Shown piece after piece: positions 29,499-39,931 of a stretch of 64,000 bases of DNA (position 1 is the first letter of the stretch; each line of letters starts with the position of its first letter). The DNA lies in the IMG/VR virus record IMGVR_UViG_3300014205_000004, positions 32,001-96,000 of that record, one strand, 5' to 3'. A program made the translations under genes and the position numbers. Source of the DNA: a virus. Its lineage: Duplodnaviria > Caudoviricetes. Below the pieces are notes generated by a model that saw only the letters and a list, made by a program, of their open reading frames with translations, ran no database searches and was not told the origin of the DNA.

Positions 29499-29791
29499 TG
29501 GAACGCTACAGCAAAAACAACGCCTGCCCGAAGTGCTCATACGGACCCAGCCCGCGCCTGCCAATCACAACAACCTACCACTTCAATCGGTGCCAGCTGG
29601 TGCCAGACGACGACATCGTGGAGCACTTCGACCGGCAGTGCCCACGGTGTAGCTACCTGTGGGCGGAACAAACGTTGAGTACGCCGAGGAACTGGCTCGA
29701 ACGGCACGTCGTGGTCACGACAGAGCTGGCGTTCGCGCTCGGTGGGGTTGCCGGAGGCGTCGTCTTCTTTCTTACGGAGGGATCATTGTGA
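29498..29791 (+). CDS. zinc-ribbon protein with C-terminal TM segment
   Basis: CPKC...CPRC. Confidence 0.65.
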   Translation: MERYSKNNACPKCSYGPSPRLPITTTYHFNRCQLVPDDDIVEHFDRQCPRCSYLWAEQTLSTPRNWLERHVVVTTELAFALGGVAGGVVFFLTEGSL

Positions 29792-30714
29792 AACGCATCC
29801 TCGCTCTCTCGCCCGACCTCAGCATCAAGGGCTTCGTCAACATCCGGCCGGACGCGCAGTTCACCTTCCCTGGTGGCGAGCGCCACGTGGACATCAGCAG
29901 CTACCTGCCGTCCGGGTCACCCGCGCGGCTGAAAGCGTACGTGTCCTCTCGCCTGGAGACGTCTGACGACCTCATGGACCTGCTCCTGGCTGTCGACGCC
30001 CTCCAGCGCCGGTACGTCGGTATCCGGATCGCTGCGTACCTTCCGTACATCCCCTACGGAAGGCAGGACCGCTACCAGGAAATAGGTACGCCGTTCAGCC
30101 TCGCCGTAGCGGCCCAACTCATCAACTCCTGCAACTTCGCGTCGGTGCACACCCTTGACCCGCACTCCAGGGTCACAAGGGAACTCATCAAGAACCTGCG
30201 CGTAATGCCGATCGATCCCTTCTACATGTTGGCGATCGACAACCTCAGCTATGAGTGGGACGAGAGCAAGGGCATCTACATCTTCAACGAAGATGTCCCG
30301 GTTTTCGTCGCTCCGGATGAAGGCGCTGCAACGAAGCTGCCACCAAGGTACCTCGTTGACGACGGCGAGGACTGCTCGGTCATCTACGCCAAGAAGACGC
30401 GTGACCCGCTATCCGGAATGGTAACGCCTCGCCTCGACGACCTGGTCTGGACGTACGGCAGCACCCGGCCAGCACTCATCATCGACGACATCTGCGACGG
30501 TGGGGCGAGCTTCACCACACTCGCCAGGGCACTCAAAGCCGCGGGCGCACCCAGGGTGTACCTGTTTGTCACCCACGGGATCTTCTCGAAGGGGCTCCAG
30601 CCTCTGCGTGACGCCGGTATTGACCGCGTCTTCACGACCAACTCCCGGAGCTTCGTGCCTTCGACAGACGAAGACCAAAAGTTCCTCAGCATCTACCGAA
30701 TAGCGAAGGGGTAA
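29788..30714 (+). CDS. prs: PRPP synthetase-like enzyme (probable NARP1 Adps)
   Basis: FPGGERHV, PYIPYGRQDR, DPHS, APDEGA, IIDDICDGGASF, VTHGIFSKG. Confidence 0.92.
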   Translation: MKRILALSPDLSIKGFVNIRPDAQFTFPGGERHVDISSYLPSGSPARLKAYVSSRLETSDDLMDLLLAVDALQRRYVGIRIAAYLPYIPYGRQDRYQEIGTPFSLAVAAQLINSCNFASVHTLDPHSRVTRELIKNLRVMPIDPFYMLAIDNLSYEWDESKGIYIFNEDVPVFVAPDEGAATKLPPRYLVDDGEDCSVIYAKKTRDPLSGMVTPRLDDLVWTYGSTRPALIIDDICDGGASFTTLARALKAAGAPRVYLFVTHGIFSKGLQPLRDAGIDRVFTTNSRSFVPSTDEDQKFLSIYRIAKG

Positions 30715-30716
30715 CA

Positions 30717-32177
30717 GTGACCACCCAACGAAACGTCCTGGAGTGTACCGACGTCTACAAGCTCGGACACCTCCTGCAGTACCCGGAAGGTACCGACTAC
30801 ATCTACTCCTACCTGCAGGCGCGTACGGACAAGAAGTTGCCCGAGACCGTCTTCTTCGGGCTTCAGTACTACCTCACGGAGTACCTCGCGAAGCGGATCA
30901 GCCACTTCGACGTGGACAAGCTCGTGCAGATCCATGAAGTCATCCTCGGCCCGGTGCGCCCGGCGATGCTCGACAAGCTCTACGCTCTGGCGAACCTCGG
31001 GTACTGGCCGATCTCCATCAAGGCCGTACCTGAAGGCACCGTCGTGCCCGTCCAGAACGTCCTCATGACCATCACCAACACCGTCCCTGGCTTCGGCTGG
31101 TGCGTCGGGTTCCTCGAAAGCCTTCTCCTGAAGGTCTGGAACACGATCACCGTGGCCTCGTACTCGCTCCGGCTCCGCCGGCTCGTCAACGCCTTTGCCG
31201 AAGCAACGTGCGACGACTTCAGCCACCTTCCCTTCCAGGTCCATGACTTCGGCTACCGCGGCGTGTCCTCCGAGGAGACCGCCGAGTTGGCCGGCGCTGC
31301 GCACCTGCTCAACTTCTACGGCAGTGATACGGTCCCGGCCGTGCGCATGCTGATGAAGTACTACGACGCGCACTTCCCGATTGCGCTGAGCGTGCCGGCC
31401 ACCGAGCACTCGGTCATGTGCTCGACCGGGCCCGGCGGCGAGTTCGACGCATTCGAACGCCTCATGTTCCGCACGTACCCGGACGGCATCGTCTCGATCG
31501 TATCGGACACCTACGACCTCTGGCGCGTCCTCACCCAGTACGTGCCGCGGCTCGGGCGCAGGATTCTCCAGCGCAACGGCAAGGTCGTGTTCCGGCCCGA
31601 CAGCGGTGACCCGGTGAAGGTGATCTGCGGTGACCCGACCGCGGCACCGGGAACGCCGCAACATCGTGGCGCACTGAACATCCTCTGGGACACGTTTGGT
31701 GGGACCGTCAACAGCAAAGGCTACCGTGTCCTCGATCCGCACGTCGGCCTCATCTACGGCGACGGCTTCTTCTTCGAACGGTTCGAAGAGGTCCTGGGCC
31801 AGATGAAGGCGAACGGCTTCGCCAGTTCGAACCTGGTGGTCGGTATCGGCGGTCTCCTGCTCCAGGCGCACACGCGCGACGAGCTCGGGTTCGCCATCAA
31901 GGCTACGTTCGCTGTCATCGACGGCGAGCCGGTCGAACTCTTCAAGGACCCGGTCACCGACTCCAAGAAGCGGTCTCACAAGGGCCGGCTGGCGCTTCAC
32001 CTCGAAGACGGTGAGTGGGTGACCAAGCAGGGCGTGTCCGAGAGCGAAGAGAAGAACGGCCATCTGGTCGAGGTCTACCGAGACGGATGGATCCGTAAGC
32101 TGCAGTCCCTCGATGAGATCCGTAGCCGCATCGACGTTTCTACCGGTCTGCGGCCGCTCGAACTGGTGGCAGCATGA
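30717..32177 (+). CDS. nadV: nicotinamide phosphoribosyltransferase-like enzyme (probable NARP1 Namat)
   Basis: TDVYKLGH, FFGLQY, HDFGYRG, PATEHSVM, VSDTYD, RPDSGDP, IYGDG, KDPVTD. Confidence 0.95.
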   Translation: MTTQRNVLECTDVYKLGHLLQYPEGTDYIYSYLQARTDKKLPETVFFGLQYYLTEYLAKRISHFDVDKLVQIHEVILGPVRPAMLDKLYALANLGYWPISIKAVPEGTVVPVQNVLMTITNTVPGFGWCVGFLESLLLKVWNTITVASYSLRLRRLVNAFAEATCDDFSHLPFQVHDFGYRGVSSEETAELAGAAHLLNFYGSDTVPAVRMLMKYYDAHFPIALSVPATEHSVMCSTGPGGEFDAFERLMFRTYPDGIVSIVSDTYDLWRVLTQYVPRLGRRILQRNGKVVFRPDSGDPVKVICGDPTAAPGTPQHRGALNILWDTFGGTVNSKGYRVLDPHVGLIYGDGFFFERFEEVLGQMKANGFASSNLVVGIGGLLLQAHTRDELGFAIKATFAVIDGEPVELFKDPVTDSKKRSHKGRLALHLEDGEWVTKQGVSESEEKNGHLVEVYRDGWIRKLQSLDEIRSRIDVSTGLRPLELVAA

Positions 32178-32515
32178 ACGACCAACTGCTTCACAAGCGT
32201 CAGAACATCCAGTGGCTCCTCAATGCGGAGCGTCTGCGCCAGCTGGACCTTCAGCGTGAGGGCCGGTTCCAGTACACCTGCTCCGACCCGGAACTCTCTC
32301 CGGCCGAGCGCCTCGCGGTCCTCACAGAGGAGGTCGGCGAGGTAGCTCGACACGTCAACGACCACACCGACCACAGTGTCGACTGTCAGTCCGAGCTCAT
32401 CCAGGTCGCGGCAGTTTGCCTGGCTTGGCTGGAGTCGTACAACAACTACGAACGTCAGGACCATGGCCGTGTGTCGCTTTCCGACTACGGCAAGATCAAC
32501 GATCAGCGCACGTAG
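32174..32515 (+). CDS. mazG: MazG-like all-alpha NTP pyrophosphohydrolase
   Basis: LAVLTEEVGEVAR...ELIQVAAVCLAWLE. Confidence 0.8.
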   Translation: MNDQLLHKRQNIQWLLNAERLRQLDLQREGRFQYTCSDPELSPAERLAVLTEEVGEVARHVNDHTDHSVDCQSELIQVAAVCLAWLESYNNYERQDHGRVSLSDYGKINDQRT

Positions 32516-32537
32516 TAAACTACGTACGTAGACACGG

Positions 32538-32616
32538 CCGCATGTAGTTCAGGTAGTGATGAACGCCGGGGGTTCAGACCCGGATGTCGCTGGGGCAGGT
32601 CCAGTCATGCGGTCCA
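32538..32616 (+). tRNA. atypical tRNA-like RNA with TCA-containing anticodon loop and encoded CCA
   Basis: Acceptor CCGCATG/CATGCGG + T + CCA; D stem GTTC/GAAC; anticodon stem CCGGG/CCCGG with 8-nt loop GGTTCAGA; variable loop ATGTC; T stem GCTGG/CCAGT with non-canonical loop GGCAGGT. Confidence 0.75.
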
Positions 32617-32619
32617 TAT

Positions 32620-32683
32620 GGAGAACACAGATGCGTCCTCGCTGAATACAACCTTAGCCGCTCACCCCCGGTAGCGAGTCTTC
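32620..32683 (+). ncRNA. candidate structured RNA or leader
   Basis: Nested pairings GGAGA/TCTTC, CTCGCT/AGCGAG, GCCG/CGGT around GAATACAACCTT. Confidence 0.4.
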
Positions 32684-32727
32684 GCACGAATCGACAACAA
32701 CTCGACAGCAACATCAGGAGACCAAGG

Positions 32728-33189
32728 GTGTCTAACTCAGGACTTGACCACATCAGGGTCAAAATCATCAATCAGGGCGACGAAGCCCGCACGATCGCCG
32801 CGCAGGAACGCCGGCTCGCCAAGAAGCTCAAGCGCGCTCGCGAGCGTGCAGTCCCCATGGAGCACATCTGCGACCTGGAGGGTCGCATCACGTCACTGCG
32901 GAACCACCGGCGCATGCCTCTCCGCAGCGACACGCGCGCCGCAAACGTCGCGTACGCGTACCTCCGCAACAAGGCCTACCGCCAGGTGGAGCAGTCCGCA
33001 ATCACGTCGCCGGACTGGGACAAGGCCAAGGCCATGGTCGTCCGGTTCTCGGGCTACATGAACGCCGACATGAAGGCATGGAAGATGATGGACTTCGAGC
33101 AGTGGGCGAAGACGGGCGTCGAGACGCCGCGGTACTGCGCTCCCCCGAAGCCCAAGAAGCCTTATGTGCGGGAAACCGCCGCGGCCTGA
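32728..33189 (+). CDS. basic helical protein of unknown function
   Basis: AGGAG RBS, GTG start; RVKI...EARTI...HRR..LR...RAA..AY.YLR..PDW. Confidence 0.8.
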   Translation: MSNSGLDHIRVKIINQGDEARTIAAQERRLAKKLKRARERAVPMEHICDLEGRITSLRNHRRMPLRSDTRAANVAYAYLRNKAYRQVEQSAITSPDWDKAKAMVVRFSGYMNADMKAWKMMDFEQWAKTGVETPRYCAPPKPKKPYVRETAAA

Positions 33190-33207
33190 CACGCAGCGAC
33201 GAAACGT

Positions 33208-33238
33208 AAAAGCCGGGACCATGTGGCCCCGGCTTTTT
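33208..33238. terminator. bidirectional terminator
   Basis: aaaagccggg...cccggcttttt between convergent genes. Confidence 0.8.
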
Positions 33239-34397: not shown

Positions 34398-34541
34398 CGG
34401 CATGCGCGTCTGCATGAAGTGCCGCGAGGTCCTCCCCCTCGACTACTACAGGATCGTGACGGACGTGGGTAAGCCCATGTGCCAGTGGTGTGAGGACAAC
34501 CCCAAGAAAAGCAAGCAAGCCGAAGGAGCGCTGCAATCTCG

Positions 34542-35000
34542 ATGGTAACGACGATTTATCTTGCCGGCCCGGTCGCCGGAGAAACCCTCGCTGCGGCTGG
34601 CAACTGGCGACGCACGGTCGCCGCGTATTTGGACGAATGCGGATTCCGCGTGCTTGACCCGCTCCGCGCCAAGTACGACGTCATCGGCCAGGACGGCGGT
34701 CCTCTCAAGGACAGCTACAGCGGCATCCTGGGTTCTGGCTCGAAGGCGATCTTCGAGCGGGACCTTTACGACGTCCGCCAGGCGGACATCGTCCTCGCCA
34801 ACTTCACCGAAGCGAAGAAGGTGTCGATCGGCACGGTCTACGAAGTAGCCGTCGCACACGAGCTCCGCAAGTACGTCGCCGTCTGCATGCGGACAAATGA
34901 CCCCTTCCACGACCACCCCTTCATCCATGAGTCCGCCAGCATCATTGTGCCGGACCTCTGGGATACGGTGTTCCAACTCGTCAAGGAGTTCTCCGCATGA
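34542..35000 (+). CDS. nucleoside 2-deoxyribosyltransferase-like / N-glycosidase protein
   Basis: IYLAGP...VLDP...IFERDLYDVRQADIVLAN...SIGTVYEV. Confidence 0.85.
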   Translation: MVTTIYLAGPVAGETLAAAGNWRRTVAAYLDECGFRVLDPLRAKYDVIGQDGGPLKDSYSGILGSGSKAIFERDLYDVRQADIVLANFTEAKKVSIGTVYEVAVAHELRKYVAVCMRTNDPFHDHPFIHESASIIVPDLWDTVFQLVKEFSA

Positions 35001-37819: not shown

Positions 37820-39931
37820 TTGGCCACTTCCAGCATCCTCCGCGCACTCTTAGGTCTTCCGCCCAAAGCGGATGCGCTCCTGGTCGCGCGGAATCAGCTG
37901 GTTTCGCCTCCCTCTCAGACTGACATCTGGGTGGCGAGGACCAGTGGCAAGGGCGGCCGCGTCCGGCTTCGCACCGGTGGCGGCACGCTCAGCGAGCAGA
38001 TGATTTTCGATCGGCAGAACGACCCGCTTCGACTGCCCGGTTCCGTAAGTCTCGACGACTTCGACATCACGATGGAAGACATCGCAGCCGAAATGGCCGA
38101 GCGTGCCGACTACGCAGAGGCCGCATCCGGTGGTAAGGGCAAGCTCCTCAAGATTCCCGAGCCGCGAATCAGCAGCAAGATCGCGCTCAAGATTGCCCAG
38201 CAGCTGAACTCGGGCGGTTCGCCGGCCCCTCAGCTCGAAGTGCCCGCCGACCGTGTCGCGCGCGCCAACCTCGCAATCAAGTACTACCTGTCTGACGGCA
38301 TCGCCGGCCCGGCTATTCGAAGTCTCTACGAGTTCGTCATCGGGCCTGGGTTCGACATCGACCCGGTGTATACCTGGGACGAACTGCCTGGCTGGTTCAA
38401 CGTGAACGCACCGGAAGTCGGTATCGCCCGCCAGCGCTACATCGAGAGCCTGGGCACGGAGACCGACGCCGAAGGCAAGACGAAGAAAAAGAAGACCATC
38501 GGCAAGAAGTCGGACGAGCGAGACCGGCTCATCTTCCTCGAATACCTGCGTCTGCGCGCCGAAGAGCTGCGTGATCGCCTCGAACTCGAAGACTTTGCAA
38601 TCGAACTGGCGCGTGACGGGCTTGTGGCCGGTGACGGCTTCGGCTTCCGTGTCGACAACATCATCGACGAGAAAGCCTTCGAAGACCTCCAGCCGAAGGC
38701 TGAGTACCTGTTCAACACGGTCTGGGAGATCCAGGGCGTCAACCCTGTCGCCATCGAGCTCGAAACTGACGAATTCGGCACCCTCGTTGGGGCTACCACG
38801 AAGCCTGCCGGTGACTTCTCGGGCAAAGGCAACCCGGTTTCGACCGAAGACCTCCCCAAGCTCATCCACCTGAAGTGGAACGGCAACCGCTACACGACCT
38901 ACGGCAACTCGCAGCTCATCAACGCACTCACCGAGCTTCAGCTCAAAGAGTCCCTGATGAACGCAATGAAAGCGTCAGCCGACCGGTACTCGCTGCCTAT
39001 CAAGCTGGCGACGTACGGTGTCATGGCTCCTGGCTCAGATGGTGGTCCTATCGCTCTCGACGAGTGGCGGGACGAACTCATCTCGGCCATGACTGCCTTC
39101 AACCCGCAGCGGGACGTCCTGGTCGGCCCGTTCCACTGGGACATCAAGTACATCGGTGCCGAGGGCGACATCCTCGACTTGGCCGGCGACATCGAAGCCT
39201 CGAACCGCCGCATCATGATGTCGATTGGCGTCCCGCCGAACTTCCTCGACTCGAACTACACCTCGTACAACACGGCGAAGATTCAGGTCGCCAACATGTT
39301 CCTGCGCCTCCGCCAGCTGCAGCTTAAGACCGGCGGCGCGATGGAGCGCAGCATCCTGCAGCCCTGGGCGCAGATGCGCGGCTATCGCGACGTCATCGGG
39401 AACGTCATCCCGTTCAAGGTCAACTGGCGCAAGGCGAACCTCGAAGGCGACCCGGAGATGCTTTCCACCATCCGGACGCTCGCTTCGGTACCCACCCAGG
39501 AAGTGATGAGCGTCAAGACGCAGCGTCACCTGATGGGCCTCAACCCGGACATCGAAGAGCAGAACTTCGCCGCGGAGCGCCTTGCACGTCGGGCCCGCTT
39601 CGAAGAGCAGGGTCTCGACCCCAACACGGGCCTCCCGCCTGGCACGGACAAGAGCGGCAACCCCGTGAACGAAGACAACGGGACCGACAACACCGACCAG
39701 AACGACAGCTCGCAGAACAAGAAGAAGGACTCGGGCGACTCAGCAGCCTCGTTGCAGTCGCAGATCGACAGCGTGAAGAACCTCGTCTTCGAGGTCTCCG
39801 CGGAGCAGGGTGCCATGGAAGAGCGCATGGCAGAGCAAATCGAGAAGGGCTGGGAAGAAATGCGCCGTGTGACGACCGCACGCCGGCAGCAGAGGGCCAA
39901 AAGCGGTGAACAAGGAAAAGATCGTGGCTAA
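37820..39931 (+). CDS. portal protein
   Basis: 703 aa; RDGLVAGDGF, LIHLK...YGNS, IGVPPNFL...SYNTA; head-module position. Confidence 0.85.
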   Translation: MATSSILRALLGLPPKADALLVARNQLVSPPSQTDIWVARTSGKGGRVRLRTGGGTLSEQMIFDRQNDPLRLPGSVSLDDFDITMEDIAAEMAERADYAEAASGGKGKLLKIPEPRISSKIALKIAQQLNSGGSPAPQLEVPADRVARANLAIKYYLSDGIAGPAIRSLYEFVIGPGFDIDPVYTWDELPGWFNVNAPEVGIARQRYIESLGTETDAEGKTKKKKTIGKKSDERDRLIFLEYLRLRAEELRDRLELEDFAIELARDGLVAGDGFGFRVDNIIDEKAFEDLQPKAEYLFNTVWEIQGVNPVAIELETDEFGTLVGATTKPAGDFSGKGNPVSTEDLPKLIHLKWNGNRYTTYGNSQLINALTELQLKESLMNAMKASADRYSLPIKLATYGVMAPGSDGGPIALDEWRDELISAMTAFNPQRDVLVGPFHWDIKYIGAEGDILDLAGDIEASNRRIMMSIGVPPNFLDSNYTSYNTAKIQVANMFLRLRQLQLKTGGAMERSILQPWAQMRGYRDVIGNVIPFKVNWRKANLEGDPEMLSTIRTLASVPTQEVMSVKTQRHLMGLNPDIEEQNFAAERLARRARFEEQGLDPNTGLPPGTDKSGNPVNEDNGTDNTDQNDSSQNKKKDSGDSAASLQSQIDSVKNLVFEVSAEQGAMEERMAEQIEKGWEEMRRVTTARRQQRAKSGEQGKDRG

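Follow-up and report, generated by a model that had tools for sequence, protein, structure and literature searches.

A candidate translational switch gated by a putative four-base-decoding tRNA in a Caudoviricetes phage

We analysed a 64,000-nt stretch of DNA (called the window hereafter) that corresponds to bases 32001-96000 of the complete, 124,496-bp virus record IMGVR_UViG_3300014205_000004 (Caudoviricetes), which has direct terminal repeats and a G+C content of 60.6%. In the window, a non-canonical tRNA gene with an eight-base anticodon loop precedes a very short leader open reading frame (ORF) ending at UGA-A and a gene coding for an all-helical protein of 153 residues. Comparison with related loci suggests that these parts form a translational switch gated by the phage's own four-base-decoding tRNA, a reading to which we assign a probability of about 0.62. 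Among the functions proposed in the first-pass annotation of this DNA, which was made from the letters alone, that of a frameshift suppressor whose UUCA would read UGAA is the one backed by the comparative evidence, and the notion of a self-contained, undescribed RNA-plus-protein unit is likewise supported. Full-text literature searches returned nothing on a natural phage switch composed of a tRNA and a leader.

The switch would operate as follows. Ribosomes would initiate at the leader ORF with the help of its Shine-Dalgarno (SD) sequence GGAG and the ATG at 32631, make Met-Arg-Pro-Arg and arrive at UGA-A. If the release factor acts at this site, the tetrapeptide would be freed and nothing more would follow. 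If UGA is read as a plain triplet, translation would stop three codons on, at a TAG backstop. If the tRNA, with the four-base anticodon UUCA in its eight-base loop, pairs with all four bases, the ribosome would enter the +1 frame, add Tyr-Asn-Leu-Ser-Arg-Ser-Pro-Pro and stall at RSPP. By covering or unwinding the segment to which the ribosome-binding site and start of the 153-aa gene are base-paired, the stalled ribosome would allow translation of the gene. As the +1 frame is in frame with the gene in the window, ribosomes escaping the stall would make an N-terminally extended protein. We infer the four-base decoding, the stall, the unmasking and the activity of this very divergent tRNA from the comparisons described below.

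The window tRNA and its class

The cloverleaf body occupies positions 32538-32612 on the plus strand, and U73 and an encoded CCA extend the tRNA to 32616. Its acceptor stem has 7 bp and its D stem 4 bp, with 10 nt in the D-loop. The anticodon and T stems have 5 bp each and close the 8-nt loop GGTTCAGA and the loop GGCAGGT, respectively, with a variable region of 5 nt between these two arms. All 21 stem pairs form, one of them G-U, and the minimum free energy (MFE) structure of 32538-32616 is the cloverleaf (z = -2.2). Sequence and fold thus confirm what the first-pass annotation had described, namely a cloverleaf with intact stems, an encoded CCA, an 8-nt anticodon loop and the aberrant T-loop. 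That annotation had also considered it the only tRNA-like element of the window, and this holds for the whole 124,496-bp genome: a scan of both strands for stems of 7/4/5/5 bp with a D-loop of 7-11, an anticodon loop of 7-8 and a variable region of 4-5 found a single perfect cloverleaf, at 32538. None was present in 74 Markov-simulated genomes with the same dinucleotide make-up, and cloverleaves with one mismatch are expected at 0.36 per genome. Since it is the sole perfect cloverleaf in the genome and the simulated genomes have none, the element is real and not a product of chance.

It escapes standard detection. ARAGORN predicted no tRNA in the window or the genome, even with the relaxed setting -ps85, and the Rfam tRNA model RF00005 gave no match at E<=10. 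Both miss 32538-32616 because its anticodon loop has eight bases, its T-loop retains C56 and R57 only and its D-loop is atypical. The anticodon loop GGUUCAGA has 8 nt and a G at position 33, whereas a canonical loop has 7 nt, U33 and a purine at 37; T54, Psi55 and A58 are missing from the T-loop GGCAGGU, and a clear G18-G19 from the D-loop AGGUAGUGAU. In contrast, a custom covariance model (R1), built from 13 tRNAs of such modules in other phages with the window excluded, finds the element with exact ends over its full length (model positions 1-75) at 29.3 bits (E ~3e-6), the next-best match in the 64 kb scoring 13.8 bits. Thus, among the tRNA-finding approaches that had been suggested for checking the element, ARAGORN and the Rfam model fail and the custom model succeeds. 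This difference in scores places the window element in a class of phage stop-anticodon tRNAs with 8-nt loops. Its loop GG[UUCA]GA fits the class form N-N-[UUCA or UCUA]-N-N, with flanking bases that depart from those of the class. A search of IMG/VR with the exact anticodon arm of the window tRNA yielded one chance match only.

Such divergence raises the question of whether the window tRNA is a relic, i.e. a decayed pseudogene, the 153-aa protein now being made from its own GTG and SD without the tRNA. The T-loop, the D-loop and positions 33 and 37 differ from those of all relatives and standard detectors fail, the 153-aa protein sits on a very long branch of the tree, and its SD is only moderately paired in the window. 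However, neutral decay would also break the stems, and these are intact despite many changed loop positions. The CCA, the leader SD, the ATG, UGA-A, the TAG backstop and RSPP are intact as well, and the 153-aa protein keeps every invariant residue of its family. Moreover, many tRNAs of these modules are non-canonical, with shortened D-arms or with deviant T-loops as in the related loci L016, L018, L025, L041, L048 and L049. We consider it unlikely that the window tRNA is a mere relic.

Linkage of the protein family to stop-anticodon tRNAs

The 153-aa gene runs on the plus strand from the GTG at 32728 to the TGA at 33189. As the first-pass annotation had assumed, it is a real gene, the N-terminus of its product aligning with those of homologues. 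A word-based protein search recovered only the protein itself. An exhaustive search of 1.84 billion representatives gave 755 representative clusters at E<=1e-3, with full-length alignments, E-values down to 4e-15 against relatives and best matches of ~27-41% identity, none exceeding 41%. The proteins of this family are 110-170 residues long and have seven invariant residues in a 40-sequence alignment (K12, E19, H60, R61, R66, R70 and E88), all of which are present in the 153-aa protein. The AlphaFold model (pLDDT 91.6) is all-helical, with a long hairpin and a small helical domain. No sequence match was found in Pfam, PHROG, NCBIfam, PADLOC or the PDB, and Foldseek and VIA-align searches with the model returned generic helical hairpins only. 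A protein atlas provided no useful lead either. Among 50,697 GenBank phage records, the family is found only in Agrobacterium phages OLIVR1-3, Stenotrophomonas phages DLP_3, DLP_5 and Summit, and Phage NCTB. Our low-confidence guess is that the 153-aa protein is a translation-related factor whose production is conditional on a working tRNA, for example as feedback on suppression.

We determined which tRNAs are encoded next to these genes in 53 loci in total, including 45 IMG/VR loci and three loci of bacterial genomes that were fetched purely by protein motif. In the latter sets, ARAGORN identified a CUA or UCA tRNA, or an aberrant four- or two-base 'anticodon' containing one of these triplets, beside the gene in 22 of the 45 IMG/VR loci and in all three bacterial ones (3/3). 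With relaxed ARAGORN, our own scan and the covariance model taken together, 46 of the 53 loci hold a stop-anticodon tRNA (CUA, UCA and one UUA) beside the gene, and two of the seven loci without one end at a contig edge. The tRNA is usually 60-200 nt upstream of the gene and on the same strand; the gap is 112 nt in the window. OLIVR1 has a tRNA upstream of its family gene to which ARAGORN attributes the four-base anticodon CCUA, and DLP_5 and Summit have an annotated amber suppressor tRNA 7 nt downstream of theirs. Locus comparison thus establishes that the gene and stop-anticodon tRNAs are linked, and the matching upstream RNAs that the first-pass annotation had proposed to look for next to homologues of the protein are present.

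We also performed the inverse test by searching IMG/VR for a CTTTCAAT-plus-T-arm pattern. Among the matches listed, which comprise 80 loci, 71 are ordinary tRNA-Glu(UUC) genes in the 7-base register, with the family gene in none of them (0/71); the other nine (9/80) are in the 8-base register, and the family gene is found in eight of those nine. The recurrent 8-base loops are CU[UUCA]AU, AU[UUCA]AC, AC[UUCA]AA, CU[UCUA]AU and AU[UCUA]AN. On the protein tree, which is quick and poorly resolved, we counted at least 13 changes of anticodon type, for instance between the sister N4-like phages OLIVR1 (CUA) and L040 (UCA). We rejected the idea that a protein clade tracks the anticodon type because of these switches, and the idea that the stop codon of the gene itself matches the tRNA, as no such match exists.

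Some features of individual loci are worth mentioning. In L016 (1997-2151), two stop-type tRNAs are arranged in tandem before the family gene, one with UUA (ochre) and the other, missed by ARAGORN, with the loop CC[UUCA]AU; the leader of this locus ends with TGA-A. In L020 (3372-3831), ARAGORN calls a tmRNA-like element ~500 nt downstream of the family gene. The 8-base loops of the IMG/VR loci L054-L133 resemble those of tRNA-Glu(UUC) or tRNA-Arg(UCU) with one additional A. UGA-A contains GAA and UAG-A contains AGA, and ARAGORN labels such loops '?(Glu|SeC)' and '?(Arg|Pyl)'. These likenesses may hint at the origin of the tRNAs or at the amino acid that they would insert.

The tRNA might also be a mimic that acts outside translation, as an anticodon-nuclease decoy, a sensor ligand, a ribonucleoprotein scaffold or a processing tag, possibly in counter-defence. 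In the window, it adjoins a NAMPT/PRPS-like pair and a MazG-like gene, and a basic helical protein may bind RNA. However, decoys should copy the anticodons that are targeted, and here the anticodon is always of the stop type and always matches the stop of a translated leader, which argues against the decoy, Y-RNA-like and processing-tag functions put forward in the first-pass annotation. Its argument for counter-defence from the NARP1 and MazG neighbours does not hold either, as there is no conserved neighbour gene across the 53 loci except for terminase genes in five, and the adjacency of the PRPS-like, NAMPT-like and MazG-like genes is not kept in the other loci with the switch. Defence-system models gave no match. 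We regard a role outside translation as most improbable.

The five loci with terminase genes are L006, L021, L024, L028 and L051. In each the switch is located within ~2 kb of these genes, at the border of the packaging genes. It lies upstream of them in L021, L024, L028 and L051, the last of which is a prophage in the chromosome of Rhizobium leguminosarum bv. trifolii CC278f, with both small and large terminase subunits identified.

Leader stops, reading frames and putative arrest

The spacers between tRNA and gene hold a tiny ORF with its own SD. In the window, it comprises the SD GGAG (32620-32623, plus strand), located 7 nt before the ATG, and the codons ATG CGT CCT CGC (Met-Arg-Pro-Arg) followed by TGA-A (32631-32646, with the UGAA site at 32643-32646). 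SD-preceded mini-ORFs are likewise placed in the relatives. The leader stop is 65-103 nt before the main start across the family, 85 nt in the window. Wherever both are known (~30 loci), it is cognate to the anticodon, i.e. TAG with CUA and TGA with UCA. The match extends to the fourth base. All loci with a UUCA or UCUA loop have an A there (UGA-A, UAG-A), complementary to the 5' U of the anticodon, whereas G, C and A all occur in those with 7-base CUA loops. The single mismatch is that of OLIVR1, which has a CCUA loop and TAG-A and whose arrest-type motif is in the zero frame. At the level of sequence, the anticodon therefore matches both the leader stop and the base that follows it.

Downstream of the leader stop, the reading frame of a Pro-Pro motif follows the size of the anticodon loop. 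All loci with an 8-base loop (17/17) have it in the +1 frame, 15 of them in the strict form R-[AGSDPN]-P-P; all those with a 7-base loop have it in the zero frame, and it never occurs in the other frames. The association between loop size and motif frame is significant (Fisher p < 1e-7, our own arithmetic, uncorrected for relatedness of the loci). In the window, the +1 frame after UGA-A codes for Tyr-Asn-Leu-Ser-Arg-Ser-Pro-Pro (32647-32670, plus strand), the RSPP arrest-type motif being at 32659-32670. The end of the motif is 40-70 nt from the main start across loci, 57 nt in the window. Experiments have demonstrated EF-P-resistant arrest at RAPP and RGPP, the variants RSPP and RDPP being partly arrest-permissive (PMC12992588, PMC10951233, PMC7897499).

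The zero frame generally closes in the loci with 8-base loops. It has a stop 3-9 codons after the leader stop in 15 of 16 such loci, including the window, where this backstop is the TAG at 32655-32657, three codons after the UGA. In 11 of the 16 loci, the +1 frame extends to the main start or into the gene, and among those with 7-base loops, the zero frame reaches the main start in eight of 11. We rejected the hypothesis that the protein is generally made as a read-through fusion; although leader and gene are in frame in the window, L003, L007, L050 and a few others, this is about the proportion expected by chance. In L007 (2474-2866), the family gene starts with ATG-TTG-TAG and has no other start, and a tRNA(CUA) ends 4 nt upstream; from this sequence, its product seems to need amber suppression by that tRNA.

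These frames bear on the possibility that the tRNA is an ordinary opal suppressor, reading UGA as a triplet with a frame-neutral extra base, and that the gene is turned on simply by ribosomes continuing beyond the leader stop. Triplets are read by the yeast mitochondrial tRNA-Thr despite its 8-nt loop (PMC3113583, PMC7609411), and the zero frame is clearly the one used by the members with 7-nt loops. In the window, however, the zero frame ends at the TAG before both the arrest motif and the anti-SD segment. The backstops of the 8-nt loci (15/16), their Pro-Pro motifs in the +1 frame (17/17) and the fourth base A that accompanies UUCA and UCUA also argue against triplet reading, which we consider improbable.

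Alternatively, the shift could take place by slippage at a slow stop codon without four-base pairing, the tRNA serving another purpose such as general suppression. A programmed +1 shift at UGA is known from the autoregulation of release factor 2 (reviewed in PMC5009743). However, the stop in the window follows CGC (CGC UGA A) and not the slippery CUU-U of prfB, and the sole SD is that of the leader, 20 nt upstream of the UGA. Furthermore, the leader stop and its fourth base co-vary with the anticodon through many switches. General suppression is not apparent in the genome either. We looked for recoded TGA in the phage genes and found no sign of it, no genes with in-frame TGA standing out. A genome scan for leaders with UGA-A and RxPP identified five sites against ~2.4 expected; none of the four others has the leader layout with SD and ATG, and the one inspected, at 34415, is out of frame inside a real gene. 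Slippage of this kind appears very improbable.

Returning to the four-base switch, we analysed how the start region of the gene might be masked. The SD of the 153-aa gene, AGGAGAC (32716-32722, plus strand), is preceded by an anti-SD segment, GTCTTC (32678-32683, plus strand), which pairs with GGAGAC (32717-32722) in MFE structures. Across 26 loci, the pairing of the main-gene SD is 0.85, compared with 0.65 in shuffled sequences (Wilcoxon p = 7e-7). When the footprint of a ribosome stalled on Pro-Pro is blocked, SD pairing across loci drops from 0.81 to 0.55 (p = 3e-6). The leader ORF and this helix occupy the place of the second structured RNA reported in the first-pass annotation. The 212-nt gap up to the 153-aa gene is not unusually stable (z = +0.65 for 32530-32730), which does not support that RNA as it was described.

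Several points weigh against this reading. The loci are variously related, and their counts are therefore not independent events. In five of the 8-nt loci, a stop closes the +1 frame well upstream of the main start, and thus coupling by termination near the start is not general. The window tRNA is the most deviant of the class, with G33 where the others have U or C and G37 where they have A, in addition to the missing T54, Psi55, A58 and clear G18-G19 and its rejection by ARAGORN and Rfam. Its arrest motif, RSPP, is weaker than RAPP or RGPP. For the window alone, the probability that the SD is paired is 0.73 versus 0.60 in shuffles, which is not significant, and simulating the stall brings about only a decrease from 0.71 to 0.57. 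Among the stop codons of the genome, TGA is the commonest, as expected from its description as a normal stop in the first-pass annotation; it ends 62 of 141 crude gene calls, 16 of them with TGA-A. Because of these 16 ends, an efficient four-base decoder would shift ribosomes at the ends of the phage's own genes too. Lastly, the whole case rests on sequence comparison, the expression, processing and charging of the tRNA being predictions.

A further-reaching proposal is that these phages use a natural four-base codon, UUCA or UCUA tRNAs reading UGA-A or UAG-A for the sole job of opening an arrest leader in front of the helical protein, as a private channel reporting that the decoder works in the host. 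We hold the odds of this to be even. The helical protein may in turn act on termination, suppression or stalled ribosomes as feedback.

Genomic setting and comparison with known systems

The unit is the last part of a plus-strand operon. Directly upstream, at window positions 29788-32515, are PRPS-like, NAMPT-like (PF04095, phrog_448) and MazG-like (phrog_2831) genes. No sigma-70-like promoter was found at the TAAACT box before the tRNA, which had been described as -10-like. The unit is closed by a GC-rich hairpin with a T-run (33208-33237) that resembles a bidirectional intrinsic terminator, in agreement with the terminator placed after the gene in the first-pass annotation. This hairpin has partial matches on both strands to terminator-like parts of Rfam models and is not among the calls of a simple terminator scan. 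The gene that follows has a convergent orientation.

Cultured phages are very distant from this one. DNA comparison with GenBank phages found no close relative, and the best identity of its NAMPT-like protein is 45%. Metagenomes from landfill, groundwater and wastewater contain nearly identical DNA, as contigs 99-100% identical to the window that are fragmentary, barely cover the tRNA and provide no sequence variation. With 39 of the 141 crude gene calls ending in TAG (28%), this stop seems frequent for a G+C content of 60.6%, the calls being rough. A 703-aa ORF (window 37820-39931) has no tblastn match in the 50,697 GenBank phage records and no Pfam or PHROG match. A small zinc-ribbon-like ORF with two CxxC pairs (window 34400-34548) precedes a nucleoside deoxyribosyltransferase-like gene (34542-35000).

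The window appears to be an unusually divergent instance of an unpublished class, in which, across dozens of phage lineages, the anticodon varies together with the four-base site and the reading frame. These include cultured ones, and carriers such as Agrobacterium phage OLIVR1, Stenotrophomonas phages DLP_5 and Summit and the Rhizobium prophage make the switch testable at the bench. The class links a large unannotated protein family (755 representative clusters) to translation and reveals a detection gap, as standard tRNA finders miss many such genes, including that of the window. Pairs of a tRNA and its matching leader might be used directly as orthogonal parts.

The +1 frameshift-suppressor tRNAs sufD, sufJ and similar ones are laboratory mutants, and to our knowledge, apart from such mutants and synthetic biology, no conserved wild-type device with four-base decoding is known. 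Frameshift-suppressor and engineered quadruplet tRNAs (PMC4764823, PMC9094753, PMC8481270) likewise have an eight-base loop and a four-base anticodon that complements a four-base site, and the engineered systems use UAGN and UGAN sites, as here. In engineered Escherichia coli, eight-base loops with NCUA anticodons decode UAGN (PMC4764823). In contrast with these mutants or designs, the phage tRNA is a conserved wild-type gene with an adjacent, dedicated leader, and the window copy differs from them in that it lacks U33, A37 and a canonical T-loop. Among natural tRNAs, yeast mitochondrial tRNA-Thr(UAG) also has an 8-nt anticodon loop (PMC3113583), but it reads CUN triplets in a sense-codon reassignment, with no linked leader and no change of frame. 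Phages with reassigned stop codons similarly encode suppressor tRNAs with CUA or UCA anticodons (PMC11210395, PMC9523058). However, they have many in-frame stops, whereas in this phage TGA is the commonest stop, recoded genes are not apparent and the adjacent leader is the only matched target found.

In prfB, too, the balance between termination and a +1 event at UGA sets the expression of the downstream frame (PMC5009743). That system senses release factor 2 and depends on P-site slippage at CUU-U with an internal SD three nt upstream, while the phage unit has no slippery site and a matching tRNA instead. A parallel for the leader is provided by the regulatory arrest peptides ApdA, ApdP and ApcA (RAPP/RGPP) and SecM (RAGP), which unmask a downstream ribosome-binding site (PMC7897499, PMC10951233, PMC12992588). 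They share with it a short upstream ORF ending in R-x-P-P at a fixed distance (40-70 nt) from the gene, whose SD is significantly paired across the phage loci taken together but not in the window alone. The phage leaders are far shorter, and eight-base loops go together with a motif in the +1 frame. The known arrest peptides are always translated and sense secretion or membrane insertion through the nascent chain, whereas the phage motif would be reached only after a stop decoded by the tRNA. If this is true, arrest-peptide leaders have a new type of trigger, a tRNA rather than secretion.

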